Positions 28,136-44,057 are shown, numbered from the stretch's first letter. The stretch is 64,000 bases of DNA from an uncultured Candidatus Saccharibacteria bacterium (GCA_964470105.1 CAYXZI010000004.1:5271-69270); one strand, 5' to 3'. Notes: generated from the letters alone by a model not told the origin. Numbers and translations: made by a program.

Positions 28136-28150
28136 GAAGAAAAAGCAATT

Positions 28151-28179: not shown

Positions 28180-28190
28180 AGAAATCTGAT

Positions 28191-28679: not shown

Positions 28680-28710
28680 GTCCCCGAAATACTCGGGGAC
28701 TTGTTCTTTT
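28680..28710 (+). terminator. Intrinsic terminator
   Basis: Stem GTCCCCGA / TCGGGGAC followed by TTGTTCTTTT. Confidence 0.6.
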
Positions 28711-28815
28711 ATATAACCCCAATCGCTTTCTTAACCTCCAGCATCTTTGCATTTGCAACCTCATTTGCCTTTCGTGATCCTTTTTCTAGTATTTTTCTTA
28801 CTGAATCTAAATCTT
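28711..28815. repeat. Non-coding, about 92%-identical copy of the trpS 3' end; direct repeat partner of 29273-29377
   Basis: Aligns base by base with the segment encoding the TrpS C-terminus (about 8 mismatches over about 105 nt). Similarity ends where the dCTP-deaminase-like gene terminates. Confidence 0.7.
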
Positions 28816-29265
28816 TTTTAATTTACCAAAAACTCCACAAACTATTTTGGTGCCAACATGTAATCTGACAGTCATAGATCCATTGTTTGATATTTCTAGG
28901 GCAAGTTGATTATCAGTGTTCGGTTCACAGAAAAAAGAGCTTTGAGTTACATTTAATCCCATCTGTGCAATAGTCGGTCTTGTACTTAATATACATGTAA
29001 ATTTATTATTTAAGCTTACTTTTTCCTTAGTATAAAAAATAGCAAATGAACCGGGTTTTAATTCAAATCCATCGTTTCCAATTGTATACTCTTCGAATTC
29101 AGGATCTTCTCGTGAATCTATAAATTCCTTAGCTTTAAGAATTCTGTACTTTGAGCCTAGAGTTAATGTATAACTTGCACCCTTAAGGTAACCTGCATCA
29201 AATGGTTCAATTATGATTTCCTTATTTTTTACTAACTGTTCTATATCCTTACCAGATAAAAACAT
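28807..29265 (-). CDS. dCTP deaminase/dUTPase-superfamily protein
   Basis: 152 aa. GKDIEQLVKNKEIIIEPF and GASYTLTLG resemble the dCTP deaminase family. Flanked by the trpS 3'-end repeats. Confidence 0.55.
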   Translation of the reverse strand: MFLSGKDIEQLVKNKEIIIEPFDAGYLKGASYTLTLGSKYRILKAKEFIDSREDPEFEEYTIGNDGFELKPGSFAIFYTKEKVSLNNKFTCILSTRPTIAQMGLNVTQSSFFCEPNTDNQLALEISNNGSMTVRLHVGTKIVCGVFGKLKKI

Positions 29266-29270
29266 AAAAT

Positions 29271-30221
29271 TTATATAACCCCAATCGCTTTCTTGACCTC
29301 CAGCATCTTTGCATTTGCTACCTCATTTACTTTTCGTGATCCTTTTTCTAATATTTTTCGTACTAAATCTAAATCCTTTGCTAGTTCTGTACGCTTATCA
29401 CGTAATGGTTTGATGAATGCATCTAAATCATCGATTAATGCTTCTTTTAGAATTTTATATTTTCCTTTATTCGCATCATAAAGTGTCTTCAACTCTGCTT
29501 CTGTTCGGAAAAGTTTGTGAATATTGTATACATTAGTTGGTACATCTCCACTTGAATCTGTGACGATACTCATCACCGCCTTTGTAATCTCCTCTCGTGT
29601 AGAGAAAAGCGGAATTGTGTTGTTATAGCTCTTAGACATTTTTTGTCCATCGATTCCCGGAATTATTGCAGAATCTTTAAGAATTACTTCTTCAGGAAGT
29701 TTGAAAGTCTCTCCAAAAGTATTGTTAAACTTTTGAGCTATATCACGTGCGTATTCGATATGCTGTTTCTGGTCCTGTCCTACTGGAACTAGATCTGTGT
29801 TGTAAAGTAGAATATCAGCCGCCATTAATACAGGATAGTTGAATGTTCCAACACTAATCTCCTTGTTCTTAGCTTCTGCATCTTTAAAGGCATGTGCACG
29901 CATCAAGAAAGGCATTGATGTAATAGAATCAAAGATCCAAGTTAGTTCTGTGTGAGCTGGAACATCACTTTGCTTAAAAATATTGGAAATATTTGGATCA
30001 ATACCAATAGCTAAATAGTCCAAAGCTAGGTCTAAAGTATGTTCCCGCATTGTCTTTGCATCTTGGATGCTGTTGAGGGCGTGATAGTCAGCAATCATAA
30101 AAAATTTGTGAGCGTCCTTGTGCTCATTTTGTAGATCTACCATTTGCTTCATAGCACCAAAATAGTTACCGATATGTGGTCGGCCTGTTGGTTTAACTCC
30201 TGAAAGTAATATTTTTGACAT
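29271..30221 (-). CDS. trpS: Tryptophanyl-tRNA synthetase
   Basis: KILLSGVKPTGRPHIGNYFGA (HIGH motif) and KMSKSYNNTI (KMSKS motif). Start taken at MSKILLSG. Confidence 0.9.
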   Translation of the reverse strand: MSKILLSGVKPTGRPHIGNYFGAMKQMVDLQNEHKDAHKFFMIADYHALNSIQDAKTMREHTLDLALDYLAIGIDPNISNIFKQSDVPAHTELTWIFDSITSMPFLMRAHAFKDAEAKNKEISVGTFNYPVLMAADILLYNTDLVPVGQDQKQHIEYARDIAQKFNNTFGETFKLPEEVILKDSAIIPGIDGQKMSKSYNNTIPLFSTREEITKAVMSIVTDSSGDVPTNVYNIHKLFRTEAELKTLYDANKGKYKILKEALIDDLDAFIKPLRDKRTELAKDLDLVRKILEKGSRKVNEVANAKMLEVKKAIGVI

Positions 30222-30268
30222 GGATATATAATAGCAAATATGGCCTAAAATGGCGAAAATATTGTATA

Positions 30269-30297
30269 TTGACAGTATTAGATAAATATAGTATACT
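30269..30297 (+). promoter_or_regulatory. Consensus promoter: TTGACA, 17-nt spacer, TATACT
   Basis: The -10 element ends 8 nt before ATG 30306, so the transcript is near-leaderless. Confidence 0.5.
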
Positions 30298-30305
30298 AAA
30301 AAAGT

Positions 30306-30551
30306 ATGAACAAAGCTCTTACTACAGTTATTGTGATCGTTATTGCCTCTGCATGGTTGACGATTCTTCTCCAGCAAAGCCGGCTAGCCAGGCAGGCAGC
30401 CGAGATTTCCGAATGGAAATCCACTGCTCAGATTGCAATCCACAGTCGCAACGTCTATTGGCGAAGAGACCCTTCGCCGCAGGACTTGAGGGATGCGCTT
30501 GATGCATCCAAGCCCATGAACCCAACCATGAGTGGGTACATGCGTAAGTAG
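30306..30551 (+). CDS. Small single-TM protein (81 aa), GC-rich
   Basis: ALTTVIVIVIASAWLTILL TM helix followed by a charged tail. Own promoter and terminator (30572-30606). Confidence 0.4.
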   Translation: MNKALTTVIVIVIASAWLTILLQQSRLARQAAEISEWKSTAQIAIHSRNVYWRRDPSPQDLRDALDASKPMNPTMSGYMRK

Positions 30552-30571
30552 GGTTCAAACAATTCACATCG

Positions 30572-30606
30572 GGCGGGTGCAAAACAAGCACCCGCTCTTT
30601 CTTTTA
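30572..30606 (+). terminator. Intrinsic terminator
   Basis: Stem GCGGGTGC / GCACCCGC followed by TCTTTCTTTTAC. The stem resembles the hairpin at 51604-51626. Confidence 0.55.
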
Positions 30607-33600
30607 CTTTATTTCCTCCCCCCTCATCAAAATGAGATAGAATGCTGGAACCAAGAATAGTGTTAGGAATGAGGAAAGTGTAAGTCCAAATATCACTGAA
30701 CTTCCTAATGCCTGCCAGAATTCATCAGAAAGTGTTACGGGTAATATACCGAATATTGTACAAAGTGATGTTATAAATATTGCTTCAAGTCTAGACTTTC
30801 CAGCATCAACTATTGCATCTTCAAAAGCAATACCACTCTTTAGATTAAGATTAATCTTGTCTACAAGAATAATAGAGTTTTTAACCACAATACCAAAGAG
30901 AGCAAGGATTCCTATAAGTGCCGGCAATCCCAAACTCACATCAAATGTAGCCATACCGAGGAATACTCCAATCAATGCTAGTGGTATTGGTACAAGCACA
31001 ATTAGAGCCTTACGGAAGGAGTTAAATTGTATAACTAGGGTAGCAATGATGAGGAATATGGCCATTAGCATTGCTCGTACAATAGAAGCAAAGGACTCTG
31101 CATTTTGTTCATTCTCTCCACCATATGAAATGATGTATCCTGCCGGTAACTTGTAATCAGCAATCTTTTTCTCAAATGCAGCTAATATAGTTGGACCATT
31201 AGTACTTGAATCAGCTCCGGCTGATAGGACGACAGTTCTTTTCTGATCAATACGAGTAATTACATTTACTGCTGGCTTCAACTCTATCTTTGAAACATCC
31301 TTTAGAAATACAGGCTGCTTAAATGCATTAAGTATTTGAAGATTTTGTATTGATTCTAGATTTGGTAAATTATTTTTATCAAATGTGGCAATGAGTTTTA
31401 TCTCCTTCTCTCCTTTTGCTATCTTAGCAATTTCAACATCAGAAATTGCTGTACGAAGAACTGATCCAACATAGGCAGCAGTTAAGTTATTTCTTTCTAA
31501 AGCAGCCTTATCGAGAACAAAGGTATATTCTGGCACCGAGTCTTTAATAGAAGTGTCTATGTTTATAACTCCAGGTATGGTTGATAGTGATGATCTTAAA
31601 TCACTCATAATTCTCGTAAGCACACCCAGATCATCTCCAGATATGTGAGCTTCAAAAGCTGCACCAGCTGGAGGACCTCCTGCTGCTACTGATACATTTA
31701 TTTTAATACCAGAAATATTAGCCTCAGTTAGATCCTTTCTAATTAAATCTGCTAGTACATATGACTTCATTGATCTCTCCTCCTTTGACTTGAGTGTAAG
31801 ATTAATTGATGAAAGATTAGATGATCCTGTTCCACTACCACCAAATTGTCCTGAATTAGGACTTCCCTGTCCGATGATTGTTGAGTAGCTAGTAACATCA
31901 GGATATGCAGACATTTTTGCCTCAACCAATCTAGTCTTAGCATCAGTCTCATCTAGGTTTGAACCAACTGGAGTACTCATATCTATATATACATAATCTT
32001 GATCGGATACAGGGAAGAATTCATTACGGACTACACCTGTTCCAACCATTGCAATACTTGCAACAAAGAGAATACCGACAAAACCGAGTACCAGTCTCCT
32101 TCTTTTCTTGTCAAAGATATAGTATTTTAAAGTCTTTTCATATATTGGAATAAATTTATGGAAATCAACTATTCCATGTATTAGACGACTTGTGAAATTC
32201 TCATGTGATCGGTCTCCCTGAGAGGCAAGCTTCTTTTTAATGAGAGCGTCACTTTTCCACTCAAGAGACATTAGTCTTTCATTCTCTTTCATCTTTGGTA
32301 CACCTCCCTTTTCATACCACCATATTAGCCATGCTTCAATACCGACTGCTATAATTCCAAGAAATATTTGTAATCCTCCACCGTTATAGAACATGAAAAC
32401 AGAAAAGATGATTAGCAGACCTTCGATTACAAAGAAGAATCTCTTGGTTAAACGTATACGCTCAAGAATTGCTGCAAGAGGGTGATTGATCATTAGAGCA
32501 ATGAAGAGTGACGCTATTAGAGTAATGGAAACAGTAACTGGTATAGATTTAAGGTATTCACCTACGATTCCTGTTGCGAATAGTAGTGGTAGAAATGCCC
32601 ATACAGTAGCTAGGGTGGTTGTAGTTAATACCCACTTAAAATCATTCAGTACCAAAAGCACTGCTTCCTCAGGAGTAAATTTTCCAGTATTTAAATACTG
32701 TTTTGTAGCAGAAACCACTACAATCGCATCATCAACAAGAAGACCTAATGCAAGGATTAGGGAAAATAGTGAAAGAAAGTTAAGTGTCATTCCTAATGCC
32801 TTAAGAACTCCAAAGCTAACAAAGAAAACAAGTGGTATTGCTAAACCAGCCACGAACGCTTCCTTTAAACCGACAATCAGGAATAGAATGATACTAACCA
32901 GAAGTACTGTAATTAAAAAATCATGACTCAATTGATCAAAACTAATACGCACCTCCTTTGCCATATCCATAGTAGTACTATATGTAATACCTGGAGCAAA
33001 AGTTTTAAGCATACTGTCTACAGTGCTTTTAACTGAGTCTACAGTATCTAGTACGGAAGCACCTTGTCTTTTTATAACTGAAAGACTAATCGAGTTTTTT
33101 GATTCAGAACCCAATTGTGACAAACGAGAGTATGAAGTTTTCTTGATTGCCTTTTCACTTACCTTTGCAATATCTTTAAGTAGTATTGTACTACCGTCTG
33201 AGGTGTGCGATACGGGTATACGAGCTATATCAGAAATTTCTGTCATTCTACCATCTACACGGATAGGAAATATTAAGTTCTTATTTTCAAAGTTACCTGA
33301 TGGTATCGCTAGATTTGAAGTCATTACTGCCCTATTTGCCTCATCAACAGTTATGCCATAGAACAGCAATTGATTGTTATCATAAGCAATCTCATATTCC
33401 AGTTCATCACCACCATAAACCCTGACTTCTCTTACCCCTGGGTTCTTTTCGAGTTCATCTTTAATATTATCTACATAGTTACGAAGAGTGAAACCATCAT
33501 ATGGACCAATTAAGGCAATTGACCATATTGGCGCATCATCAAGTGAAATTTCATTTACGACAGGTTCCTTTGCGTCGGTTGATATATCATTCTTAACTGT

Positions 33601-34014
33601 AGCGACCTTATCACGTAAATTTCTAATTGCATCATCTAGATTTTCATTAGCATTAAACTCAACTTGTATAGATGAAAGAGAATTATATGAATTTGATGTT
33701 AGCTTATTAAGCCCCTTCAGACCTGAAAGCTTTGCTTCAATCTTTTTAGTAACAAACTCCTCAACATCAGATGGTGATGCTCCTGGATATACTGTTGTAA
33801 CTATGGCTATTGGAATTTTAACTTCAGGATTTGATTCACGCGGTAATGAAAGGAAAGAGTATATTCCCCATACAGATATTATAACAATGAGAAGAATGAC
33901 TACACGAAAATTAGTTACAAAGAAATTTAACCAGGTATTACGAAGTTCAGGTCTAAATTCTAGACGTTCGAGGTATCGACTATCAGATGATTGTTCTTTA
34001 TTTTTATAATCCAT
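30604..34014 (-). CDS. RND family efflux transporter (AcrB-like)
   Basis: 1136 aa with 12 TM helices and two large periplasmic loops; AcrB/HAE1-type conserved blocks. Confidence 0.85.
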   Translation of the reverse strand: MDYKNKEQSSDSRYLERLEFRPELRNTWLNFFVTNFRVVILLIVIISVWGIYSFLSLPRESNPEVKIPIAIVTTVYPGASPSDVEEFVTKKIEAKLSGLKGLNKLTSNSYNSLSSIQVEFNANENLDDAIRNLRDKVATVKNDISTDAKEPVVNEISLDDAPIWSIALIGPYDGFTLRNYVDNIKDELEKNPGVREVRVYGGDELEYEIAYDNNQLLFYGITVDEANRAVMTSNLAIPSGNFENKNLIFPIRVDGRMTEISDIARIPVSHTSDGSTILLKDIAKVSEKAIKKTSYSRLSQLGSESKNSISLSVIKRQGASVLDTVDSVKSTVDSMLKTFAPGITYSTTMDMAKEVRISFDQLSHDFLITVLLVSIILFLIVGLKEAFVAGLAIPLVFFVSFGVLKALGMTLNFLSLFSLILALGLLVDDAIVVVSATKQYLNTGKFTPEEAVLLVLNDFKWVLTTTTLATVWAFLPLLFATGIVGEYLKSIPVTVSITLIASLFIALMINHPLAAILERIRLTKRFFFVIEGLLIIFSVFMFYNGGGLQIFLGIIAVGIEAWLIWWYEKGGVPKMKENERLMSLEWKSDALIKKKLASQGDRSHENFTSRLIHGIVDFHKFIPIYEKTLKYYIFDKKRRRLVLGFVGILFVASIAMVGTGVVRNEFFPVSDQDYVYIDMSTPVGSNLDETDAKTRLVEAKMSAYPDVTSYSTIIGQGSPNSGQFGGSGTGSSNLSSINLTLKSKEERSMKSYVLADLIRKDLTEANISGIKINVSVAAGGPPAGAAFEAHISGDDLGVLTRIMSDLRSSLSTIPGVINIDTSIKDSVPEYTFVLDKAALERNNLTAAYVGSVLRTAISDVEIAKIAKGEKEIKLIATFDKNNLPNLESIQNLQILNAFKQPVFLKDVSKIELKPAVNVITRIDQKRTVVLSAGADSSTNGPTILAAFEKKIADYKLPAGYIISYGGENEQNAESFASIVRAMLMAIFLIIATLVIQFNSFRKALIVLVPIPLALIGVFLGMATFDVSLGLPALIGILALFGIVVKNSIILVDKINLNLKSGIAFEDAIVDAGKSRLEAIFITSLCTIFGILPVTLSDEFWQALGSSVIFGLTLSSFLTLFLVPAFYLILMRGEEIK

Positions 34015-34016
34015 TT

Positions 34017-35513
34017 TTATTGTACAATTACCTTCTGTCCTTCCTCTAGTTCATATACAGGAGATACAATTTTCATATCTGGATTAATACCACTCGTAAT
34101 TTCTATAAAGTCTCCTTGAATCTTTCCTATTGTTACAGAATTTTTAACTATTTTAGATTCATCATTAACAGTATATACATAGGCAAATCCAGGAACTATC
34201 TTTACATTTTGAATTGGAATCAAATATACCTTGCCCTCAGCAGTAGTTGCAGTAGTTTTTTGTGCTTCAATTAATACATTTACATTCTGTCCAACAATGA
34301 GTCCTGACTCATCCCCATTATCAATTGAGATCTTAGTTTCAACCTTACGATTTACTGTGTTTACACTGGGAGCAACACTCATAACTTTTCCTTTTATATT
34401 TGTCTCAACCATAACGTTAGCTCCAACAGCGATCTTTGAAAGGTCTTCACCACTTGCATATGCCTTAATTTGTAATCCTCCACCACCAACAACCGTAGCA
34501 ATTAGTTGACCTGGTTGTGCCAACTCTCCTTGACGCAACGGTAATCCAGCAATTTTCCCAGATATTGGAGAAGTTATAATTGTCTTAGCTAGTTGAGCTT
34601 CAAGATTTTTAACTATAGCCTGCGCTGAAGATATCTGTGCCTCAGAGCCTGATAGTCCAGATCCAGCGGATGTAAGACTCTTAATTGCTCCATTAATATT
34701 ATTTCTATCTAAGCTTACTGTATTTTGCCAACCAGTTAAAGTTGTATATGTACTAGATACTGGTGTACCCTTTATTGCATCATTTATTACTTTAGAAATA
34801 TCTTCCAAAAGAAGACTTATATTTCTTAGATTTTCTTGTGATGCAGAAATAACGGAGGCAATATCAGTATTACTAGAAGATGTAGTTAGTGAGTCAATAT
34901 TTTTTTTCCATGATACTGATATTTCCTTAGCCTGAAGATATCTCGCCCTTATAGACTCATCGAGATTTCTGTCTGTTATGAAGGAAGATAGACGTTGATT
35001 GCCTCCCGTTTGATCGTATAGAAAAGGACTTAGATCAATACTGATAACCTCATCGGCAATTAAATAGCTACTTTGCAAAGTTTCCAATGCTGATTTTCGT
35101 GGAGCCTCAAGAAAGTCACCAGATGAAGTATACTGTCCTTGCGCCAGTCTCAGCCCTGCTTTAGCCTGATCTAATTGAGCACGGATATCAGCATTTTGTA
35201 ATGTTGCAATCACCTGACCTTTTGTTACATTATCTCCAATTCCCAAATTTACACTCGCAAGCGGGGCTGAAATTTGACTACGAAGATCAACTTGAGATAC
35301 TGATTCAACAATTCCATCTGCAGATATTTTAGAAATATCATTTCTAAAATTACCGACTTCAACTAGAGTAACCTTCTTATCATTACCGGTATTTTCAGAT
35401 ACAACTTTTGATCTTGTGGCAACTCTACCTGCAATTACCGAAGTTATGACAGCAACGATAGCAATACCGGCTGAAAGAACAACGTGACTACGTATGTATG
35501 TAAATATCTTCAT
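34017..35513 (-). CDS. Efflux membrane fusion protein (HlyD/RND adaptor family)
   Basis: N-terminal TM helix, coiled-coil hairpin and lipoyl-like/beta-barrel blocks. Immediately upstream of the RND gene. Confidence 0.75.
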   Translation of the reverse strand: MKIFTYIRSHVVLSAGIAIVAVITSVIAGRVATRSKVVSENTGNDKKVTLVEVGNFRNDISKISADGIVESVSQVDLRSQISAPLASVNLGIGDNVTKGQVIATLQNADIRAQLDQAKAGLRLAQGQYTSSGDFLEAPRKSALETLQSSYLIADEVISIDLSPFLYDQTGGNQRLSSFITDRNLDESIRARYLQAKEISVSWKKNIDSLTTSSSNTDIASVISASQENLRNISLLLEDISKVINDAIKGTPVSSTYTTLTGWQNTVSLDRNNINGAIKSLTSAGSGLSGSEAQISSAQAIVKNLEAQLAKTIITSPISGKIAGLPLRQGELAQPGQLIATVVGGGGLQIKAYASGEDLSKIAVGANVMVETNIKGKVMSVAPSVNTVNRKVETKISIDNGDESGLIVGQNVNVLIEAQKTTATTAEGKVYLIPIQNVKIVPGFAYVYTVNDESKIVKNSVTIGKIQGDFIEITSGINPDMKIVSPVYELEEGQKVIVQ

Positions 35514-35529
35514 ATGTTTTTATTATACC

Positions 35530-36387
35530 CTATATTCCCTCCTTTTTTAATTCTTCAACCAATTTCTGTGCTGATTTTGACAACTTCTTAGGCATATCTA
35601 CTTTTGTAACAATAAGTAAATCCCCTCTTCTACCTCGAGCATCCGGTACACCCTTCTGGCGTACCCTCAATATTTCATTATGTGTCGTACCCGCTGGAAC
35701 CTTTAGCTCTATCTTCCCATCTAATGTCTCGATATCTAGAGTAGCTCCAAGAAGTGCAGTGGTGAGTTTCAAATCTAATTCCATTATCAAGTTATTTCCT
35801 TCTTTTCTAAAAACATCGTGATCTGTAACCCAAACTCTAACAATTAAGTCTCCTTTTCCTCCTGGACCATCTTCTCCTTTACCTGAAACTCTCAATCCTT
35901 GTCCATTTTCAATTCCAGATGGAATCTTTACCTCTATTTTTTCTTTGTCCACAATGATATCTTTTGCAACACCGAATACTGATTCCTTGAATGAAATTTG
36001 AATATCTATATTTATAGTTGCTCCCTTTCTAGGTCTTCTACCTCCTCCTCCAAAGAATTCTCCGAATATATCTCCTAGATCAAATTCAAATGCTTGTCCA
36101 TTCTGACTTTGATATTGTCTTGCGAACTGAGAGAAATCGAAACCGGCACCACCGAATCCTTGTGATCCTGTAAATCCACTAGGTCCGTCTGAACCGAAGG
36201 TATCATATTGCTGACGTTTTTGATCATCAGACAAGGTTGTATATGCTTCATTTATCTCTTTAAACTTAGCATCATTACCCTGATTCTTATCAGGATGGTG
36301 CTCATGAGCAAGCTTACGAAAAGCTTTCTTTATATCGTCTTTTGAGGCGTTTTTATCAACACCTAGGATTTTGTAGTAGTCTTTCAT
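35530..36387 (-). CDS. dnaJ: DnaJ/CbpA-type J-domain co-chaperone without Zn finger
   Basis: J domain DYYKILGV...HPD, G/F-rich linker, and DnaJ C-terminal domains. No CxxCxGxG repeats. Confidence 0.75.
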   Translation of the reverse strand: MKDYYKILGVDKNASKDDIKKAFRKLAHEHHPDKNQGNDAKFKEINEAYTTLSDDQKRQQYDTFGSDGPSGFTGSQGFGGAGFDFSQFARQYQSQNGQAFEFDLGDIFGEFFGGGGRRPRKGATINIDIQISFKESVFGVAKDIIVDKEKIEVKIPSGIENGQGLRVSGKGEDGPGGKGDLIVRVWVTDHDVFRKEGNNLIMELDLKLTTALLGATLDIETLDGKIELKVPAGTTHNEILRVRQKGVPDARGRRGDLLIVTKVDMPKKLSKSAQKLVEELKKEGI

Positions 36388-36429
36388 TACTTTTACATAT
36401 TAACAGAAATGTGTTGTTTAATGGGATTG

Positions 36430-36458
36430 ACTATACGGTGTATCTGTGATATGTTATG
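36430..36458 (+). promoter_or_regulatory. Promoter: TTGACT, 17-nt spacer, TATGTT
   Basis: Upstream of a 5' region containing TTTAGAGAAAGC and CGGATGCT, which are also present before the gene at 38158. Confidence 0.35.
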
Positions 36459-36488
36459 TTTTAGAGAAAGCACCGAGTATGCGCTCGG

Positions 36489-36842
36489 ATGCTAGATAAC
36501 CAACTCATAATGGGATCAAAAATGATCAAAGAAACTGAAACTCAACGCCAGAAACGAGAGGAGAAGGAAGCCATGGGAAAGGAGAGGATACTCAGGCATG
36601 CCAAATCCCTTATTGATGGAATCGAGAGCGGAAAGATGCCCAGGGTAGTGGTTGCTGGGGCGATCCACCAAATACTTGCGGGTGCCGCACTGTATTGCCC
36701 TGATCAGATGATTCTTGTTCACGGGCACAACAAGAAGGAATCAGAGGTGCCAGACCCAGAACTGATCACTCGGACTGCGAAGTGGCTCTCAAAGGCAGAT
36801 GCGGAGATAGAGAGAGCAAGAGAAGAAGGCAATGGATCATAA
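36489..36842 (+). CDS. Hypothetical protein (GC-rich gene); the start codon is uncertain
   Basis: 117 aa ORF at about 50% GC with no recognised domain. Followed by the 46-nt terminator repeat. Confidence 0.4.
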   Translation: MLDNQLIMGSKMIKETETQRQKREEKEAMGKERILRHAKSLIDGIESGKMPRVVVAGAIHQILAGAALYCPDQMILVHGHNKKESEVPDPELITRTAKWLSKADAEIERAREEGNGS

Positions 36843-36844
36843 CC

Positions 36845-36886
36845 GAAAGCCGGCCTCCCCAGTGGACGCCGGCTTCGCTTTTTATA
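36845..36886 (+). terminator. Terminator, repeat copy 1: GAAAGCCGGCCTCCCCAGTGGACGCCGGCTTCGCTTTTT
   Basis: Stem AAGCCGGC / GCCGGCTT followed by a T-run. About 46 nt identical except 1 nt to the element at 38779-38827. Confidence 0.65.
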
Positions 36887-36891
36887 TTTAA

Positions 36892-37893
36892 CTAGACTAA
36901 TAGATTAGTTGTAAGTGCTACCATCAGTTCCTTATCCTTAGGATCACTTTCAGCAATCAACAGTGCTAAAGCTACTAGTGTATTATCATTTATTTTTCTT
37001 TCACCATTTGCTCGTATATCAATTCTATTAAGTCTCAAGAAGAAAACAAAACAGAATGAAGCTATACGCTTATTACCATCTGAGAATGGATGGTCCTTTA
37101 TGATGAAGTACAGTAGATGAGCTGCTTTTTCATCGAGACTTGAATATAGCTCCTTTCCATCAAAAGTTTGATATATGGTTTTAAGTATACCCCGGAAACT
37201 TCCATCACGTTCTATACCGAAGAGATCTGATGCTTCCTTTTTATCTATTAATACAGTCTTTAAGACTTCAATTGAACTATGAATGAATTCATAATCAAAT
37301 TTCTTTTTTTCAATATCCTTACTTTTCCTTAACTTTAGCTCACCTTCATCATATTCCTTAAGAAATTTCCATGAATTAGCATAGTCATGTATTACAGACA
37401 ACAAGCTATTACTCTCGCCTTGGCTTAACTCTCTTTCTCTAACAGTGCGCTGAATGAAGGAAATCTTTTCTTCTAGATCCTTAAGTATTCTATCTGGGAG
37501 ATTACTAACTCTTTCATTGTTAATAACAATACCTTTAATTAGATACTCTCGAAGTGTTGTAGTGGCCCACTGTCTGAATTTAATTGCCTTTGAAGAATTA
37601 GTACGATATCCGACTGCCAGGATGATGTCTAGTGAATATAAGGTAACTGGCTTATATGAATTAGTATTATGCATATTTTGCATATTGCTTTTTTCATCCA
37701 CCTCACCATCACTGAGTGTATTCTTTATGTGTCTAGACACAACCGACTGATCAATTTCGAACAATTCAGCAATCTGAGCCTGTGTTGCCCAAATTGTTTC
37801 CTTATCTGTGTCAGCTCTCAATTCTACTGTCCCATTAGCACTTGTATATATTACAAGCCTACCATCATCATTTTTAATGATATTTGTGTTCAT
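36892..37893 (-). CDS. RhuM-family N-terminal domain fused to a Fic/DOC domain
   Basis: N-terminal LVIYTSANGTVEL...TIWATQAQIAELF is RhuM-like. The C-terminal HPFSDGNKRIASF matches the Fic motif HPFx(D/E)GN(G/K)R. Confidence 0.7.
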   Translation of the reverse strand: MNTNIIKNDDGRLVIYTSANGTVELRADTDKETIWATQAQIAELFEIDQSVVSRHIKNTLSDGEVDEKSNMQNMHNTNSYKPVTLYSLDIILAVGYRTNSSKAIKFRQWATTTLREYLIKGIVINNERVSNLPDRILKDLEEKISFIQRTVRERELSQGESNSLLSVIHDYANSWKFLKEYDEGELKLRKSKDIEKKKFDYEFIHSSIEVLKTVLIDKKEASDLFGIERDGSFRGILKTIYQTFDGKELYSSLDEKAAHLLYFIIKDHPFSDGNKRIASFCFVFFLRLNRIDIRANGERKINDNTLVALALLIAESDPKDKELMVALTTNLLV

Positions 37894-38157
37894 ATTTAGT
37901 TTGTTAGTTAATAATCTAATAAAAAAATGTCATTCTGACTTAATATGTTTGATTCAAAATAAAAATCTCTATTTCTCCTCTCTCCTAAGAAAATATCGAG
38001 CGAGCCTTGTGGGCATTAGTGGGTATATTATACCAAATATGTGTGGGTAATCTGAACTTTACTTTATATAATAAGTGTGTTACTAATAGTCAATATGAAC
38101 ACGAGCGGATGCTCGAAAGTTCTTTGGAAAACTCAACTTTTTGTTTAGAGAAAGCTT

Positions 38158-38748
38158 ATGAAGACCACCCCTACTTTAGAGCGAGTTGTCGATGCAATAC
38201 AGGAGACAGTTATCAAGGAATTGCTCACGGTATGGAGAATCAACCGTGAGATTACGACCGAGAAACTCTCGGCAATGACCTATCGGCAATTGAGGTCCCA
38301 GCTCGGCCCCAAATCAATCCATCGTTTGTATCTCGAGTGTTGGAGTACAATTTCCCCCGACATGGCCTGGATGAAGGATCATGAAAGGAAGCGAGAAAAA
38401 AGATTGTCTCCGATCGAAGTGACTGGCTACTCTATCACATATCAGGAAGTCAGGTGGGCTGAAATTGAAGCAAGTGTCAAAAAGATACAAGTACTCGCCA
38501 CCCCATCAATCAAACTCCTTCTCAAGAAGTTTCGAAAAAAAGGAGAAACTCAGCAAGGTGAATGGGCGTGTGAAAGAGCAGATGATGTATTTCCTAGCAA
38601 ACTTCCTGAAGATCAGCGTCTGCACCCCCTATTTCTGATCAATCAGAGGCTGCAATTCGATGGAGTTCACTTTAGGTTTAAGTTCATGCCTTACAGAAGT
38701 GGACCTGCCAGTACTGATCTGGTCGAAATTGTCGCCAGGAACAGATAG
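38158..38748 (+). CDS. Hypothetical protein (GC-rich gene)
   Basis: 196 aa. Starts with ATGAAGACCAC, as does the gene at 28191. Upstream TTTAGAGAAAGC and CGGATGCT motifs. Followed by terminator repeat copy 2. Confidence 0.45.
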   Translation: MKTTPTLERVVDAIQETVIKELLTVWRINREITTEKLSAMTYRQLRSQLGPKSIHRLYLECWSTISPDMAWMKDHERKREKRLSPIEVTGYSITYQEVRWAEIEASVKKIQVLATPSIKLLLKKFRKKGETQQGEWACERADDVFPSKLPEDQRLHPLFLINQRLQFDGVHFRFKFMPYRSGPASTDLVEIVARNR

Positions 38749-38778
38749 TCCACATCTCTACGACTTACCTGGAACACG

Positions 38779-38817
38779 AAAGCCGGCCTCCCAAGTGGAC
38801 GCCGGCTTCGCTTTTTA
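38779..38817 (+). terminator. Terminator, repeat copy 2
   Basis: Same sequence as 36845-36886 except CCCCAG becomes CCCAAG. Convergent with the dnaK stop codon. Confidence 0.65.
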
Positions 38818-38841
38818 TATTCAATTTTACTTTCTTTTAAT

Positions 38842-40722
38842 TTACTTCTTCTCCTTAAACTCTGCATCCTTTACATCTCCCTCTGGACCCTTGTTCTCTC
38901 CAGTTGGTGGTGTCTGTGCTTGAGCTTTGGATAGTATTTCTCCAATCTTTGATAGCTCAGATGATAGTGCATCAGAAGTTGTCTTTAGTCTTGCAGAATC
39001 TGTTCCATCTTTTGCACTCTTAACATCTGCAATCTTGTCCTCAATGCTCTTTCTAAGATCAGCTGGAACCTTGTCTCCTGCATCCTTAAGAGATTTCTCT
39101 GAAGTATGGATCAATTGCTCTGCCATATTCTTGGCTTCAATCATATCCTTCTTCTTTGCATCTTCAGCAGCATTTACTTCTGCATCATGTTTCATCTTTT
39201 CTACTTCTTCTTTTGAAAGACCTGAACTAGCAGTTATTTTTATACTGTTTGCCTTTCCTGTAGCTTTGTCTTTTGCAGTAACTGAAAGGATACCGTTTGC
39301 ATCTAGATCAAAAGTAACTTCAACTTGTGGCATACCACGTGGAGCTGGAGCTATACCATCTAGAATAAATCTTCCTAATGATTTGTTATCAGCTGATAGC
39401 GGTCTTTCACCTTGAGTAATGTGAATTTCTACAGATGTTTGGTTATCTGCTGCTGTAGAGAAGATTTGAGACTTCTGGGTAGGGATAGTTGTATTCTTTT
39501 CAATGAGTTTTGTAGCTACTCCACCCATTGTCTCTATAGCTAGAGAGAGTGGTGTAACGTCTAGGAGAAGCACTCCCTTAACATCACCGGCTAGTATACC
39601 TCCTTGAATAGCAGCACCTACCGCAACCACCTCGTCAGGATTCACACCTAAGTGTAGCTCCTTACCGAAGAAATCTTTCACAGCTTTTTGCATAGCTGGC
39701 ATACGTGTCTGACCTCCCACCAAGATTACTTCATTAATATCTGCAATCTTAAATGGTGAAGCACTCATAGCACGCTTCGTAATCTCCATTGCTCGATCAA
39801 TGAATTCACGTGTAAGCTCTTCAAGCTTTGCTCGTGTCATAGTTACAAGCAAATGCTTTGGACCATCAGCACCAGATGTTAGGAAAGGAATATTTACTTC
39901 TGTCTGCATAGCTGTTGAAAGTTCTATCTTTGCCTTTTCAGCTGCTTCATCTAATCTCTGTAGAGCTAGAGCATCTTTTCTTACATCAATTCCCTCTTGC
40001 TTCTTGAATTCTTCAGCAAGCCAGTTGATGATCTTCTGATCAATATCCTTACCTCCTAGGTGAGCATCTCCATCAGTTGATTTTACTTCTACAACATCAT
40101 CTCCCACTTCTAGAACTGATATATCAAAAGTTCCTCCACCGAAGTCGAAGACTACGATCTTTTCATCTTTCTTTTTGTCGAAGCCATATGCTAGAGCTGC
40201 AGCTGTTGGTTCGTTTATAATTCGTTTTACATCGAGTCCTGCAATCTTTCCTGCATCCTTTGTTGCTTGTCTCTGTGCATCGTTGAAGTATGCAGGAACG
40301 GTAATAACTGCTTCAGTAACTGGTGAACCTAGACGAGCTTCTGCATCTGCTTTCATTTTTCCTAGAATCATAGCTGATATCTCCTCTGGTCTGTACCATT
40401 TATCACCCATCTTTACTTCAATTCCTCCTGTTGCACTTTTCTGCATTTCAAAAGGAACAGATGCGCGATCCTTTTGTACTGCTGGATCATCAAAGTTGTG
40501 GCCGATAAATCTTTTAATTTGATATATTGTATTTTTTGGATTTGTTACTCCTTGGCGCTTTGCTAGAAGTCCTACCATGCGCTCGCCAGTTTTTGACATA
40601 GCAATGATGGAAGGAGTTGTACGTGCACCTTCTGCGTTTTCTAATATTTTAGGGGTACCAGCTTCCATCACAGCGACGGCTGAGTTGGTGGTACCGAGAT
40701 CGATTCCGATTATTTTGGACAT
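38842..40722 (-). CDS. dnaK: Chaperone DnaK (Hsp70)
   Basis: [18 protein letters not shown] and [10 protein letters not shown] motifs; 626 aa. Confidence 0.95.
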
Positions 40723-40738
40723 ATTGATTTTATTTAAT

Positions 40739-40767
40739 TTGACATTATTAATGTTTTATAGTATATA
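40739..40767 (+). promoter_or_regulatory. Consensus promoter: TTGACA, 17-nt spacer, TATATA
   Basis: The -10 element ends 7 nt before ATG 40774, so the transcript is leaderless. Confidence 0.45.
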
Positions 40768-40773
40768 TATTAC

Positions 40774-40914
40774 ATGAGAAAGCTCTTTTTGGTAACCATT
40801 GTGCTTACTAATGCACTCTTTTCTGTGGCATCAGAGATCATTCTTTTTCTTGCATGTGCAAAAGTTGCACTTATTGCTATCGGAGTGATCTACTTGGTCG
40901 TAAACAAGGTCTGA
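40774..40914 (+). CDS. Small hydrophobic peptide, 46 aa
   Basis: MRKLFLVTIVLTNALFSVASEIILFLACAKVALIAIGVIYLVVNKV. Own promoter and terminator (40935-40971). Confidence 0.35.
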   Translation: MRKLFLVTIVLTNALFSVASEIILFLACAKVALIAIGVIYLVVNKV

Positions 40915-40934
40915 GGTACCTGGAACATCTCATT

Positions 40935-40971
40935 GGTGGCGAGTCTCTTATAGACCGCCACCTTTTCTTTT
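40935..40971 (+). terminator. Intrinsic terminator
   Basis: Stem GGTGGCG / CGCCACC followed by TTTTCTTTT. Confidence 0.55.
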
Positions 40972-41266
40972 ACATAGACGGCGCCCTAGTTGGTTGACTC
41001 ATTAAAAATTCAAGATAAAAATATGGAGATATCTTTGAAACAAAAGAAGGCAGATATTCAAACTCTGTAAACACTTTCTCCTTAAATTCTGGCAAGCAAA
41101 TGACTGTCTCCTTATTCTGTATTAAAGCCTCAGCAGATATAACATGAGGTTGAGGTTTACCATCTACATTTACTATAGTAAATCGTACACGAAATAGGAC
41201 ACCGTTCTTATCTCGAACGATTCTTTCAAAAATACTATTTATATTTTTATTCTGAGTTACTAACAT
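40970..41266 (-). CDS. Hypothetical protein, 98 aa
   Basis: ORF with no recognised domain. Confidence 0.3.
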   Translation of the reverse strand: MLVTQNKNINSIFERIVRDKNGVLFRVRFTIVNVDGKPQPHVISAEALIQNKETVICLPEFKEKVFTEFEYLPSFVSKISPYFYLEFLMSQPTRAPSM

Positions 41267-41414
41267 GTCTGTATTATAACAGGAATTTCAGGCTTGTCTA
41301 TATTTAATTAAATTTACTACCCATACCCAAACTTTTCATATCTCAAATCATTGAGTTTTAAATCATATGCAGTGGTATTGACATTATATACTATAGATGG
41401 TACTATTAAGTAGT

Positions 41415-41612
41415 ATGAATATTGCACCTTGCATTTTCCTCCTCATCATGAACTTCTCTGTCGTTGCTTTTGCCTACTTCTCATACGAGGAGGTGAGGGC
41501 CTTGATAAAAAGACGAGGTAGCCTACTATATTCACTGGTGCTGATAGCGGCCACCGTCGGCTCCGCATACATCATGCACACAGTAATTAAGATGGTCTAC
41601 ATCGGTCAGTAA
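41415..41612 (+). CDS. Small membrane protein (about 65 aa) from a leaderless start
   Basis: Promoter TTGACA-17-TACTAT at 41378-41406, with ATG 41415 placed 8 nt after the -10. Two hydrophobic helices. Confidence 0.35.
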   Translation: MNIAPCIFLLIMNFSVVAFAYFSYEEVRALIKRRGSLLYSLVLIAATVGSAYIMHTVIKMVYIGQ

Positions 41613-41676
41613 CAGTTCTAGGCTATCTATAAACCTAGTTTGACGAGCGCCAGAATGATCTGGCGCTCTTTCGTAT

Positions 41677-42219
41677 CTATTTTGTCTCCCCAATCTTTAC
41701 CTTAGGAGCTTTCAATACCTTACCGTTCAATTCATACCCCTTCTGAACTACAGTCGTAACCGTATTCCCATTCTTTCCATCCTCTATAGCTTCATCACGC
41801 ATAGGGTCAAACGGTTTACCCATAGGGTCAATTTCCTTTAGTCCAAAGCCCTCAAGTACAGTCTTTAACTGATTTGCAATATATTCTACTCCAACTCTCC
41901 AGTTCTTATCTACCTTCTCCCATACCTCTTTGTTCCCCATAGCCATATTGAAGCTATCCAGAACAGGTATTAGCTCACCAATCAAATTTTCATTTGAGAA
42001 TCTAGCAAAATCCTTCTGAGCTTCCTGGTCTCTCTTTCTAGCATTTAGAAACTCAGCCTTGTCTTTTTGCCAGGAATTAAGATATTCCTGCTTCTCTTCA
42101 ATAGCTTTTTTAAGCTTTTCCTTTAGTGCCTTTACTGATTCCATTGCATTTTCTTCCGCAACTACAGAATCATCGATATTTTCATCTTTTTCAATTGTGA
42201 TATCATTTTCTTCTTTCAT
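41677..42219 (-). CDS. grpE: Nucleotide exchange factor GrpE
   Basis: GrpE family pattern with coiled-coil N-terminus and C-terminal beta domain (LDSFNMA motif). Confidence 0.85.
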   Translation of the reverse strand: MKEENDITIEKDENIDDSVVAEENAMESVKALKEKLKKAIEEKQEYLNSWQKDKAEFLNARKRDQEAQKDFARFSNENLIGELIPVLDSFNMAMGNKEVWEKVDKNWRVGVEYIANQLKTVLEGFGLKEIDPMGKPFDPMRDEAIEDGKNGNTVTTVVQKGYELNGKVLKAPKVKIGETK

Positions 42220-42240
42220 ATAAAATAGTATACGTTAGAA

Positions 42241-42299
42241 TTTTAGATTTGCAAATATTTTAAGTTACATGGTATTGTCATATTGGTAACTGCAACCAT
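42241..42299 (+). repeat. 60-nt promoter/leader repeat, copy 1 (TTGCAA-18-TATTGT)
   Basis: Identical to 42783-42841 across about 59 nt. The palindromic TTGCAA at 42248-42253 also serves as the -35 of the divergent grpE promoter. Confidence 0.6.
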
Positions 42300-42344
42300 G
42301 AAATGCAGAAATTATAGGTGCTTAGCACCAGAAAGTATAGTTCC

Positions 42345-42710
42345 ATGAGAAAAATAACTATTGAGTCTGTTCCAGGTGGTATATCTGAGGCAGGCCTATT
42401 CACCGCAGTTGCAGATGCTGTCCACACACTAGGCAAGAGTGCGGACATTATAGTGTTTGTCGGGGTTTATGGTACGAATGATCCGGATGGCGATCGTACT
42501 GGTCTGCACTACAAGTTAAGGCTTGAGATAAAGGAACCAGCAGCCGGTATCTACTACGCACAGAAGGTTTCAGATGAGTTCAAGCTAAGTGGGGACCAAA
42601 CGACCGCTACCCTAACAATGGCGATTGTCGAGAAGGTAAGGGAGTTCATCAGCAATAAGGCTGCTTACCACTCGCGCCTTGCATCAGCATACGAGTCCTT
42701 ACGACAGTGA
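42345..42710 (+). CDS. Hypothetical protein (GC-rich); paralog of the 42839 gene
   Basis: About 121 aa from MRKITIESV. The ORF track gives a GTG start at 42318. It is preceded by a 16-codon uORF (MKCRNYRCLAPESIVP) whose stop overlaps the ATG. Terminator at 42735-42766. Confidence 0.45.
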   Translation: MRKITIESVPGGISEAGLFTAVADAVHTLGKSADIIVFVGVYGTNDPDGDRTGLHYKLRLEIKEPAAGIYYAQKVSDEFKLSGDQTTATLTMAIVEKVREFISNKAAYHSRLASAYESLRQ

Positions 42711-42782
42711 GGACGATATCATTTCTACATTGCAAAGCGGCAAGGTTTTCCCTTGTCGCTTTTTAATTAGCTCTTAAACCAT

Positions 42783-42841
42783 TTTAGATTTGCAAATATT
42801 TTAAGTTACATGGTATTGTCATATTGGTAACTGCAACCATG
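42783..42841 (+). repeat. 60-nt promoter/leader repeat, copy 2
   Basis: Perfect copy of 42241-42299. Here the ATG at the end of the repeat reads straight into the ORF. Confidence 0.6.
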
Positions 42842-43231
42842 GCACCTAAAACCGTGCCTCAAAGAGAAAGTGTTTGTATGGCAGAGATAACGATAAGGAA
42901 AAGTTTGGAATTCGATGATGAGATTTCTCAAAAGATTTGTGTGGATATAATTGACGCCCTTTCATACTTTGGGAATGAACGCCTTGTCATTGATCAGATT
43001 GATCTTTGGCCTAGGATTGTGGGAGATGAATGTGTCCTATCGGTCACCATTACCCACCGAGCTTCAGGGAGAGTAGAGCAATCTACTTTTGAACTCAACA
43101 ACAATTGGAGTCCACACTCGATCGCATTAGCAATCAAAACACACACAGGTATACCCCTTATGTCAGAGGTACCTGTTACCGAAAGGTTAGTATCGACACT
43201 TGGATCAATTCCAATTACACCGATTGGATGA
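42839..43231 (+). CDS. Hypothetical protein (GC-rich); paralog of the 42345 gene
   Basis: MAPK...MAEITIRKSL... The N-terminal region weakly matches the P1 N-terminus (ITI ... DAV/DAL ... FG). Terminator at 43249-43278. Confidence 0.45.
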   Translation: MAPKTVPQRESVCMAEITIRKSLEFDDEISQKICVDIIDALSYFGNERLVIDQIDLWPRIVGDECVLSVTITHRASGRVEQSTFELNNNWSPHSIALAIKTHTGIPLMSEVPVTERLVSTLGSIPITPIG

Positions 43232-43276
43232 TTGGTCCACAAACAAAAGCGCCTGGGTAAACCCCAGGCAACTTTT

Positions 43277-43687
43277 TTATCTCTTAGACCACTGTGGACT
43301 CTTTCTCGCTTTCTTAAGTCCGAACTTACGTCTTTCCTTAGCTCTTGGGTCTCTCTTTAGAAGCCCTGCCTTCTTTAACTTTCCTCTTAGCTCTTTATCA
43401 TATTCAATTAATGCACGAGCTATACCATGTCTTACTGCATCAGCTTGTCCACTTATTCCTCCTCCCTTTGTAACAACTGTAATCTTAAACTTAGTTTCAG
43501 TTAGTTTGGCCTCTTTCATTGATTCAGATGCCATCATTTGCAGCTCTTTTGTTGGGAAATATTCTTCAATAGTTTTTCCATTGATATCATAAGATGTCTT
43601 TGCAGCAGGAGTAATACGAACACGAGCAGATGCTGTCTTTCTTCTCCCTATAGCTTCTATGTATTTGTCCGCTTTCATTGTTGTCAT
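43277..43687 (-). CDS. rpsI: 30S ribosomal protein S9
   Basis: C-terminal PRAKERRKFGLKKARKSPQWSKR. Confidence 0.9.
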   Translation of the reverse strand: MTTMKADKYIEAIGRRKTASARVRITPAAKTSYDINGKTIEEYFPTKELQMMASESMKEAKLTETKFKITVVTKGGGISGQADAVRHGIARALIEYDKELRGKLKKAGLLKRDPRAKERRKFGLKKARKSPQWSKR

Positions 43688-43688
43688 A

Positions 43689-44057
43689 TTATTCTGTAAT
43701 TGTTAAATTTTTCATCATCTGCTTTCTAAGTGTATTTGAAGGAAGCATTCTGTATACTGCTCTCTCAAAAACCTCACTAGCTCCCTTTCTGTTGATTAGG
43801 TGCTCAAGAGATTCAGTGAAAAGTCCTCCTCTGAACCCTGTAAAGGTTACATATTCCTTTTCCTTCATTTTCTTTACACTAAAATCAGCTTTGCTTGTAT
43901 TGATTATACTTACCTTTACTCCTGAAACCTTATTTCTTACAAAATTTACAGTTTTCTTTCCAATTAGCAAACTTGCTGCTTCACTTGCAACTCTTCCTAA
44001 TTTCTTTCCTTGTGCGTCTATTGTGTGGTTCATATTTTTAATATTATACAAATTCAA
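43689..44057 (-). CDS. rplM: 50S ribosomal protein L13
   Basis: IDAQGKKLGRVASEAASLLIGKK. The start may be the internal MNHT, 8 codons downstream. Confidence 0.9.
   Translation of the reverse strand: MNLYNIKNMNHTIDAQGKKLGRVASEAASLLIGKKTVNFVRNKVSGVKVSIINTSKADFSVKKMKEKEYVTFTGFRGGLFTESLEHLINRKGASEVFERAVYRMLPSNTLRKQMMKNLTITE

Follow-up and report, generated by a model that had tools for sequence, protein, structure and literature searches.

A RhuM-Doc gene and opposite-strand orphan genes in an interrupted grpE-dnaK-dnaJ cluster

The chaperone cluster and the genes that separate it

The DNA analysed here is a stretch of 64,000 nucleotides (nt) deposited for an uncultured Candidatus Saccharibacteria bacterium (GCA_964470105.1, CAYXZI010000004.1:5271-69270) and referred to below as the window. 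Judged by its genes and its closest relatives, the DNA belongs to a bacterium of the Patescibacteria (candidate phyla radiation), of the Paceibacteria / "Candidatus Taylorbacteria" type. Its Hsp70 chaperone genes grpE, dnaK and dnaJ are kept apart by a gene encoding a protein of the RhuM/Fic/DOC type (RhuM-Doc) and by small open reading frames (ORFs), most of them on the opposite strand. A first-pass annotation had placed the three chaperone genes on the minus strand, in canonical order and separated from one another, and this was confirmed by Pfam searches. The chaperone genes and the content of the dnaK-dnaJ gap are as follows.

35530-36387, minus strand: dnaJ, 285 amino acids (aa), J domain and C-terminal domain (Pfam DnaJ 1.3e-25, DnaJ_C 2e-41)
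36489-36842, plus strand: o117, 117 aa, GC content 0.49, in "slot 1" between dnaJ and the RhuM-Doc gene, convergent with the latter
36892-37893, minus strand: RhuM-Doc gene, 333 aa, RhuM N-terminus and Doc-type Fic C-terminus
38158-38748, plus strand: o196, 196 aa, GC content 0.46, in "slot 2" between the RhuM-Doc gene and dnaK, convergent with the latter
38842-40722, minus strand: dnaK (Pfam HSP70 5.4e-244)
41677-42219, minus strand: grpE (Pfam GrpE 1.4e-34)

The spacer between dnaK and dnaJ measures 2454 bp and that between grpE and dnaK 954 bp. An identical arrangement was found in four independent assemblies (SRR10036056, SRR10036059, SRR10036063 and SRR10036065), which excludes misassembly. 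The first-pass annotation had listed a RhuM/Fic gene and two GC-rich genes in the gap of about 2.4 kb, and all three are there; the RhuM-Doc gene, which it had put on the opposite strand, is on the minus strand with dnaK and dnaJ, and it is the GC-rich ORFs that lie on the plus strand. Mean GC content of the window is 0.37, and that of the housekeeping genes about 0.36. The cluster is physically interrupted. Strong hairpin terminators were predicted after grpE, dnaK and the RhuM-Doc gene, together with a promoter-like site for each gene. Promoters and terminators named here and below are consensus or folding-energy predictions, and judged from them the cluster is probably interrupted transcriptionally as well. 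A CIRCE heat-shock operator (controlling inverted repeat of chaperone expression) was not found in the 64-kb window, even with up to three mismatches allowed.

No zinc-finger domain was found in the window DnaJ (no Pfam DnaJ_CXXCXGXG match), and the NCBIfam DnaJ models scored under their cut-offs. By its predicted domains the protein is class-B-like, with J and C-terminal domains and without the zinc finger. Most DnaJ proteins of the genomes that carry RhuM-Doc likewise lack this domain (283-311 aa). A zinc-finger DnaJ of about 368 aa was kept in two related loci, L092 (8800-9906) and L100 (6797-7903), and in many relatives with contiguous dnaK and dnaJ.

RhuM-Doc: family, position and descent

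The N-terminus of RhuM-Doc matched Virulence_RhuM (PF13310) with 70.5 bits against a cut-off of 33.7, the match being restricted to positions 10-88 of the 252-position model; residues 235-286 matched Fic/DOC (PF02661) with 42.2 bits (cut-off 24). The NCBIfam model TIGR01550 (DOC_P1) scored 48.0 bits against a curated cut-off of 38.65, and PHROG 577 ("Doc-like toxin") was matched at 6.5e-18. The sole solved structure matched by sequence was PDB 9vzc, a "Death-on-curing family protein" (1.7e-4). The PADLOC model PDC-S23 (PDLC04965) aligned over nearly its whole length (4.6e-113; residues 10-332 of 333 against model positions 4-323 of 327). About 8000 homologues were found, under the NCBI name "virulence protein RhuM/Fic/DOC family protein". 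An AlphaFold2 (AF2) model built from 28 homologues was of moderate quality (predicted local distance difference test, pLDDT, 65; predicted template modelling score 0.43); in it, beta strands and a winged helix-turn-helix at the N-terminus are joined by long linker helices to a helical domain at the C-terminus. The top Foldseek match of this pLDDT 65 model was P1 Doc (3k33_A; probability 1.0, target template modelling score 0.57, E 0.035).

The catalytic motif of RhuM-Doc, HPFSDGNKR at residues 268-276, fits the Doc consensus HxFx(D/N)(A/G)NKR; AMPylating Fic proteins have the consensus HxFx(D/E)GNGR (PMC4177925). KDHPFSDGNKR was invariant among 28 RhuM-Doc homologues. The longer AMPylating motif HxFx(D/E)GNGRxxR is unmatched, with lysine at position 8 and serine at position 12 (HPFSDGNKRIAS). 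Owing to its position-8 lysine, Doc of phage P1 binds ATP in reverse orientation and works as a kinase; its substrate EF-Tu was, according to a 2014 review, the only target characterised for the Doc family (PMC4177925). AMPylation, which the first-pass annotation had expected of a Fic protein, is thus unlikely because the motif is Doc-type, and RhuM-Doc should transfer phosphate and not AMP. Doc toxins are usually paired with a Phd antitoxin (PMC4177925); no co-oriented small ORF was found upstream of RhuM-Doc in the window. The FicA-like inhibitory motif (S/T)xxxE(G/N), which had been proposed as a check, was found neither in RhuM-Doc nor in o117, o196, o130, o135, o98, o71 or o46 (the last five are listed below).

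The position of the gene was compared among relatives by mapping the window proteins onto 80 species-representative loci fetched via GrpE. The backbone rpoA-L17-L13-S9-grpE-o98-dnaK-dnaJ was conserved across this set and the spacers were highly variable; the one between dnaK and dnaJ ranged from 19 bp to 4.4 kb, with 19-130 bp in 17 of 47 genomes. Eleven distinct loci of relatives have RhuM-Doc downstream of dnaK in the same orientation, with copies 57-94% identical among themselves, and in 10 of them it directly precedes dnaJ. The order dnaJ / cassette / RhuM-Doc / cassette / dnaK recurs in L085, whose RhuM-Doc is 94% identical to that of the window. A tight grpE-x-dnaK-RhuM-Doc-dnaJ operon is present in L095, with spacers of 36 nt on the dnaK side of RhuM-Doc and 4 nt on its dnaJ side, and the distance from the end of RhuM-Doc to dnaJ is 15 nt in L094 and 28 nt in L091. 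Of seven homologues sampled at 60-76% identity, six are situated between the chaperone genes dnaK and dnaJ and share their strand. Among 80 homologues sampled from metagenomes, linkage to dnaK/dnaJ was seen for all three at 62% identity or more and for none of the 76 at 52% or less; the copy in L101, at 61%, is also unlinked. The most frequent neighbours of the 76 unlinked homologues were subunits of type I restriction-modification (R-M) systems, which agrees with a report that RhuM proteins are over-represented close to the targets of programmed inversion, most of them type I R-M specificity genes (PMC9881135). The window and the 11 related loci place the gene in a grpE-dnaK-dnaJ cluster and not in the defence-gene setting of PDC-S23. 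In the literature, no paper was found that connects a dnaK operon, or the toxin-antitoxin systems of Patescibacteria, with RhuM, Fic or Doc, and none on "PDC-S23".

A quick neighbour-joining tree, computed without support values, placed all dnaK/dnaJ-linked copies in a single clade, within which two unlinked copies are also nested. Pairwise RhuM-Doc identity followed that of DnaJ (Spearman 0.81) and DnaK (0.78), the pairs coming from the same loci and not being independent. The ratio of non-synonymous to synonymous substitution rates (dN/dS) against L085 was 0.037 for RhuM-Doc and 0.026 for DnaJ. Loss of the gene is directly visible in L010, a close relative of L011: the gene body is gone, and the last 65 nt with the terminator are kept at 95% identity, together with a 25-aa fragment. 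The simplest reading of these comparisons is that RhuM-Doc is an ancient, often-lost and vertically inherited resident of the chaperone cluster that goes back to one capture. Its stable residence in a dnaK operon of bacteria of the candidate phyla radiation (CPR) would be the new element, in a protein family already known and with predicted Doc chemistry.

Several observations weigh against this reading. Only three of the 80 GrpE-selected representatives (L007, L011 and L067) carry RhuM-Doc, a rarity under which ancient residence requires many losses. The closest representative, L005, has chaperones 96-98% identical to those of the window and unrelated genes in the dnaK-dnaJ gap. Two members of the RhuM-Doc clade, L093 and L101, are not adjacent to dnaJ. 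Finally, co-divergence with the flanking genes would also result if related genomes exchanged the entire dnaK-dnaJ segment by recombination.

The dnaK-dnaJ gap is a hot spot where toxin-type accessory genes collect. Other relatives carry MazF/PemK toxins, RelE/YafQ-like pairs, a ClpP-like gene and unrelated Fic-domain genes there (L020, 14339-15391; L022, 17201-17947 and 16049-16438; L067, 8347-8971 and 10071-10531; L013, 13476-14000). The unrelated Fic-domain genes were found in L020 and L022, one of them with the canonical motif HPFTDGNGR, and all Fic-motif ORFs detected in 1.33 Mb of related loci are located downstream of dnaK.

Opposite-strand orphan genes and their regulatory flanks

No match to o117 or o196 was found in Pfam, NCBIfam, PADLOC or PHROG. 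Among 5.8 billion proteins o117 matched only itself and o196 had one homologue (70% identity); o196 also gave five matches among 1.84 billion cluster representatives, with homologues detectable at the protein level at 32-40% identity. The AF2 model of o196, built from two sequences, reached a pLDDT of 39, too low to be of use. Compared with its homologue in L085, o196 showed a dN/dS of 0.24, an in-frame indel and an excess of third-position change, next to neighbours with dN/dS of 0.02-0.05. A second plus-strand orphan, o135 upstream of grpE, is 51% identical to its counterpart in L005 (dN/dS 0.34), with nearly identical flanks and a GrpE 96% identical. On these substitution patterns o196 and o135 are coding and fast-evolving. 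The o117 transcript is not unusually structured (z -1.3). Rfam gave no match in the GC-rich parts, with the window scanned at gathering thresholds and positions 29500-44000 at E up to 5, and a search of the window for tRNA and tmRNA returned only one unrelated tRNA-Gln. A phage origin was considered and rejected: a pattern scan of IMG/VR found no relatives of o117, o196 or this RhuM-Doc, and the orphans had no PHROG match.

Close relatives differ in what the two slots hold. The L085 homologue of o196 is found in slot 1, on the dnaJ side of RhuM-Doc, and slot 2 next to dnaK holds another ORF, of 86 aa; in L096 an o196-like gene lies beside dnaK without RhuM-Doc. Small opposite-strand ORFs flank RhuM-Doc in most loci and, across the eleven loci, belong to many unrelated families; in L095 RhuM-Doc has no neighbouring small ORF. 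The first-pass annotation had offered two possibilities for the GC-rich genes. Independent cargo is borne out by the turnover between close relatives and by occurrence without RhuM-Doc. This turnover and separate occurrence also indicate that they are not cognate partners of RhuM-Doc, the antitoxin or immunity role proposed as the other possibility: the genes differ between genomes whose RhuM-Doc is 94% identical. Small opposite-strand ORFs with a zinc-ribbon pattern (CxxC...CxxC) recur beside RhuM-Doc in either slot in other loci (L007, 20159-20329; L090, 6669-6872; L067, 7490-7720; L092, 8124-8339), with none in the window.

The predicted regulatory elements of the dnaK-dnaJ gap are these.

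36427-36488, plus strand: promoter-like site of o117 (TTGACT-17-TATGTT) and 5' hairpin CCGAG..CTCGG (-13.9 kcal/mol, z -4.4)
36844-36898, both strands: terminator hairpin T1, common to o117 (plus) and RhuM-Doc (minus), a 55-nt repeat of T2
38027-38056, minus strand: promoter-like site of RhuM-Doc, TTCAGA-18-TATAAT with TG (consensus scan, 10 of 12 matches)
38095-38124, plus strand: 5' leader hairpin of o196, GAACA-CGAGC-GGAT-GCTCG-AAAGTTCTT (-10.6 kcal/mol, z -3.0)
38777-38831, both strands: terminator hairpin T2, common to o196 (plus) and dnaK (minus)

The o117 promoter region overlaps the divergent promoter region of dnaJ, the latter being conserved in L005, L013 and L085; the RhuM-Doc promoter region is conserved with L085. 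T1 and T2 form a 55-nt direct repeat of 91% identity (none expected by chance), and T1 folds with -20 kcal/mol on the plus strand and -25 on the minus strand (z about -4). The T1 element also follows RhuM-Doc in L085, L090 and L098, and the T2 element directly follows dnaK in L012, L013, L025, L085, L090 and L098, with covarying stems. The leader of o196 recurs in L005 (15122-15144), there in front of another ORF, and in L085 in front of the o196 homologue; variants with changed stems were seen in slot 2 of L085 and in L096. A 5' hairpin followed by AGTTCTT opens several different cassette transcripts, the stem sequence changing and the pairing being kept (38095-38124 in the window; 15122-15144 in L005; 8313-8335 and 10250-10271 in L085; about 845-875 in L096). 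This leader hairpin could be a stabiliser of the mRNA 5' end, an operator or a recombination site. A heat-shock operator was rejected: the window has a single copy of the hairpin and lacks a CIRCE site. Cassettes of the integron type were rejected as well: the units have promoter-like sites of their own and are dispersed singly among housekeeping genes, and their shared 3' hairpin is the conserved dnaK/RhuM-Doc terminator, kept also where genomes have other cassettes. No integrase domain was seen among the ORFs scanned.

Similar units, and the conserved gene o98, lie on either side of grpE.

40774-40914, plus strand: o46, 46-aa hydrophobic ORF, its ATG about 7 nt after a TTGACA-17-TATAGT promoter
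40970-41266, minus strand: o98, 98 aa, conserved clade-specific gene between grpE and dnaK
41397-41668, plus strand: o71, 71-aa two-helix membrane ORF, with a hairpin terminator (41645-41668) common to grpE
42240-43275, plus strand: cassette region of o130 and o135, each after a perfect 61-nt promoter/leader repeat
42345-42710 (from ATG), plus strand: o130, opposite-strand orphan cassette upstream of grpE
42878-43231 (from ATG), plus strand: o135, opposite-strand orphan cassette upstream of grpE

The spacer of about 1 kb between grpE and dnaK had been described as holding a leaderless hydrophobic peptide gene and two small ORFs. This description holds in outline, except that the "small ORF" at 40970-41266 is the conserved gene o98. 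Homologues of o98 occupy the same place and strand in 49 of the 80 related loci, and their C-terminal tail SQPTRAP(S/A) is invariant; no match was found in Pfam, NCBIfam, PADLOC or PHROG. It appears that o98 is an additional gene of the grpE-dnaK operon that has gone unrecognised. Both o46 and the hydrophobic ORF at 41415-41612 (plus strand) begin 7-9 nt after good -10 boxes and so look leaderless, and the hydrophobic ORFs of this spacer resemble small membrane or type-I-toxin-like peptides. The spacer differs in length and sequence in L005 and cannot be aligned with it.

Upstream of grpE, perfect 61-nt direct repeats (42240-42300 and 42781-42841) bracket the 541-bp o130 unit. A single copy of the repeat, without the o130 unit, is present in L005, and the o130 unit was apparently gained recently, as a cassette at a promoter that is conserved. 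That o130 and o135 are diverged tandem duplicates was rejected, as no similarity between them is detectable. The window contains nine GC-rich orphan ORFs (710-1042, 28149-28652, 30306-30551, 36489-36842, 38158-38748, 41397-41612, 42345-42710, 42878-43231 and 56367-56867) with a GC content of 0.42-0.49, all opposite in strand to the flanking housekeeping genes. None has a Pfam match; a separate promoter-like site and a hairpin terminator accompany each of those inspected. All-against-all BLASTP found no paralogy among the GC-rich ORFs; only the regulatory flanks repeat.

One further GC-rich islet (30237-30601), absent from L085, lies between a resistance-nodulation-division pump gene and trpS. 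The islet holds an ORF of 81 aa with a hydrophobic helix at its N-terminus, besides a promoter (TTGACA-17-TATAGT) and a terminator, and the plus strand of the islet folds far better than shuffled sequences (z -5.6). The long "TTG" start of the ORF at 29271-30377, which reaches into this islet, is probably over-extended. Nearby, a 110-nt direct repeat of 92.7% identity (28708-28817 and 29270-29379) brackets the ORF at 28807-29265, whose counterpart in L085 carries a dCTP-deaminase (DCD) domain.

Origin, possible role and comparison with known systems

We consider it probable, at roughly 70%, that the locus combines two layers of different age, an old RhuM-Doc resident and fast-evolving opposite-strand orphan cassettes. 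RhuM-Doc would have been captured once from the widespread RhuM/Fic/DOC family into a grpE-(o98)-dnaK-X-dnaJ cluster within one Paceibacteria group ("Taylorbacteria"-like CPR bacteria), and would then have been inherited vertically under strong purifying selection and lost repeatedly. The GC-rich opposite-strand units, each with its own promoter, a 5' hairpin and a terminator shared with the convergent housekeeping gene, would fill slots on both sides of RhuM-Doc as well as the grpE-dnaK and S9-grpE spacers, and would be gained, lost and moved between slots among close relatives. It would be these orphan units, and not RhuM-Doc, that split an operon which is tight in some relatives into separate transcription units here.

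The first-pass annotation had instead taken RhuM-Doc and its two GC-rich neighbours for a mobile islet recently inserted into a contiguous dnaK-dnaJ operon. The short dnaK-dnaJ spacers of many relatives, the missing RhuM-Doc in L005 and most GrpE-selected relatives, the 55-nt direct repeats bracketing a 1.9-kb unit (RhuM-Doc with o196), the variety of accessory genes in the gap of other genomes, and the R-M or defence contexts of the wider family would all suit such an event. However, RhuM-Doc keeps one position and strand in 11 loci that have diverged widely and include tight operons; the linked copies form one clade, co-diverge with DnaJ and DnaK and are under strong purifying selection; no integrase or transposase was noticed among the spacer ORFs; and the 55-nt repeat is a conserved terminator after dnaK and RhuM-Doc in several genomes. 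For RhuM-Doc a recent insertion is already largely refuted and we regard it as distinctly unlikely; the interrupted order appears largely ancestral, though the gene is not universal core. A toxin-antitoxin or toxin-immunity module, made of RhuM-Doc and one or both GC-rich ORFs, would fit the habitual pairing of Doc with Phd, the o196 family beside RhuM-Doc in two genomes (the window and L085) and the small opposite-strand ORFs around RhuM-Doc in most loci. We hold it to be very improbable, given that these neighbours come from many unrelated families, that o117 has no homologue anywhere, that the o196-like gene of L096 stands without RhuM-Doc, that no small ORF adjoins RhuM-Doc in L095, and that RhuM-Doc lies directly against dnaJ in L091 and L094. 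Moreover, the neighbours are convergent from their own predicted promoters and not co-operonic with the toxin, and no (S/T)xxxE(G/N) motif is present.

The GC-rich segments might also be structured non-coding RNAs or remnants, their long ORFs being a by-product of GC-richness. GC-rich DNA in a genome of 37% GC does yield long chance ORFs, the ORFs match no protein family, the o196 model is unconfident, and the similar islet at 30237-30601 is strongly folded. The chance of this is slight: the o196 and o135 frames are kept across 30-50% protein divergence with third-position excess, in-frame indels and dN/dS of 0.24-0.34, o196 has homologues at the protein level, Rfam offered nothing even at E of 5 or below, and the o117 transcript, for which no homologue allows a coding comparison, folds much like its shuffles. 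A different proposal concerns RhuM-Doc itself, namely that it is dedicated to the Hsp70 system, modifying DnaK, DnaJ or GrpE or being held in check by them as in FICD-BiP, with gene order reflecting the partnership. The deep conservation of synteny, the translationally tight spacing with dnaJ, the two unrelated Fic-domain genes in the same gap, the location of every Fic-motif ORF of the related loci downstream of dnaK, and the precedent for Fic-Hsp70 regulation (PMC4739761) speak for it. Against it, most relatives do without RhuM-Doc, so that chaperone function does not depend on it; the motif is that of Doc, whose only characterised target was EF-Tu in the 2014 review; and the gap also collects MazF/RelE-type toxins, so that a hot spot alone would enrich Fic/Doc genes and explains much. 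We consider such dedication unlikely.

Within the two-layer reading, RhuM-Doc may be a single-chain, self-controlled kinase whose RhuM/winged-helix domain is regulatory or sensing, with no separately encoded antitoxin. Like P1 Doc, which acts on EF-Tu, its Doc domain would have a translation factor as substrate and would halt translation by phosphorylating it. The conserved place in the Hsp70 cluster suggests that RhuM-Doc is expressed with the chaperone system or controlled by it, possibly under proteotoxic or phage stress, so that the protein might act as a stress-triggered or phage-triggered brake on translation. We infer kinase activity, target and chaperone link from family knowledge and gene order. 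It seems doubtful that RhuM-Doc is a chaperone-coupled signalling enzyme and not a stray toxin, an enzyme which either phosphorylates DnaK, DnaJ or GrpE or is freed to stop translation once unfolded or phage proteins titrate the chaperones; were this true, bacteria would have their own version of the FICD-BiP circuit, and PDC-S23 a first functional clue. In any case, a RhuM-Doc subgroup long retained in an Hsp70 operon, with housekeeping-like selection and no apparent antitoxin, offers a testable hypothesis on what a very common family may sense or control. The locus also exemplifies how compact CPR operons may be fragmented by small, self-contained opposite-strand orphan genes that share terminators. 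For annotation it is a warning that a toxin-like gene in a core operon is not always a recent insertion and that the motif HPFSDGNKR does not denote an AMPylase.

Among known systems, PDC-S23 is the closest: the window protein is a full-length match with the same RhuM N-terminus and Fic/DOC C-terminus. Sampled members (76, at 52% identity or less) most often have type I R-M subunits as neighbours, whereas the window subgroup has its place in the dnaK-dnaJ gap and the evolution of a housekeeping gene. As a defence system PDC-S23 is a candidate only, and we found no paper testing it, be it for phage protection or for another function. PDC-S05, a single-gene RhuM candidate defence system, shares the N-terminal 150-220 residues or so of RhuM-Doc (1.2e-52) and not the Doc domain; one PDC-S05 representative cut T7 and T5 plating about 1000-fold (preprint 10.1101/2024.09.26.614923). 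P1 Doc of the Phd-Doc system shares the position-8 lysine, the Doc consensus and the DOC_P1 model, and is the top Foldseek match (3k33_A) of the moderate-quality model, though at an E of only 0.035. In the window, however, the Doc domain forms the C-terminal part of a longer protein (333 aa) that has RhuM/winged-helix at its N-terminus, nothing Phd-like is encoded upstream, and the gene is not on a phage or plasmid. The AMPylating Fic proteins (FicT/FicA, VopS, FICD/HYPE) share the Fido fold superfamily (PF02661) with RhuM-Doc, which differs from them in having K/S instead of G/R at positions 8/12 and no (S/T)xxxE(G/N) motif. FICD regulates the Hsp70 BiP in eukaryotes (PMC4739761), a precedent that makes the genomic link of RhuM-Doc to dnaK suggestive. 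The canonical (hrcA-)grpE-dnaK-dnaJ operon, which is compact in some relatives, has the same gene order and strand. Compared with it, the window has two extra conserved genes (o98 and RhuM-Doc), no CIRCE and a DnaJ without zinc finger, and here opposite-strand cassettes with hairpin terminators separate every gene.

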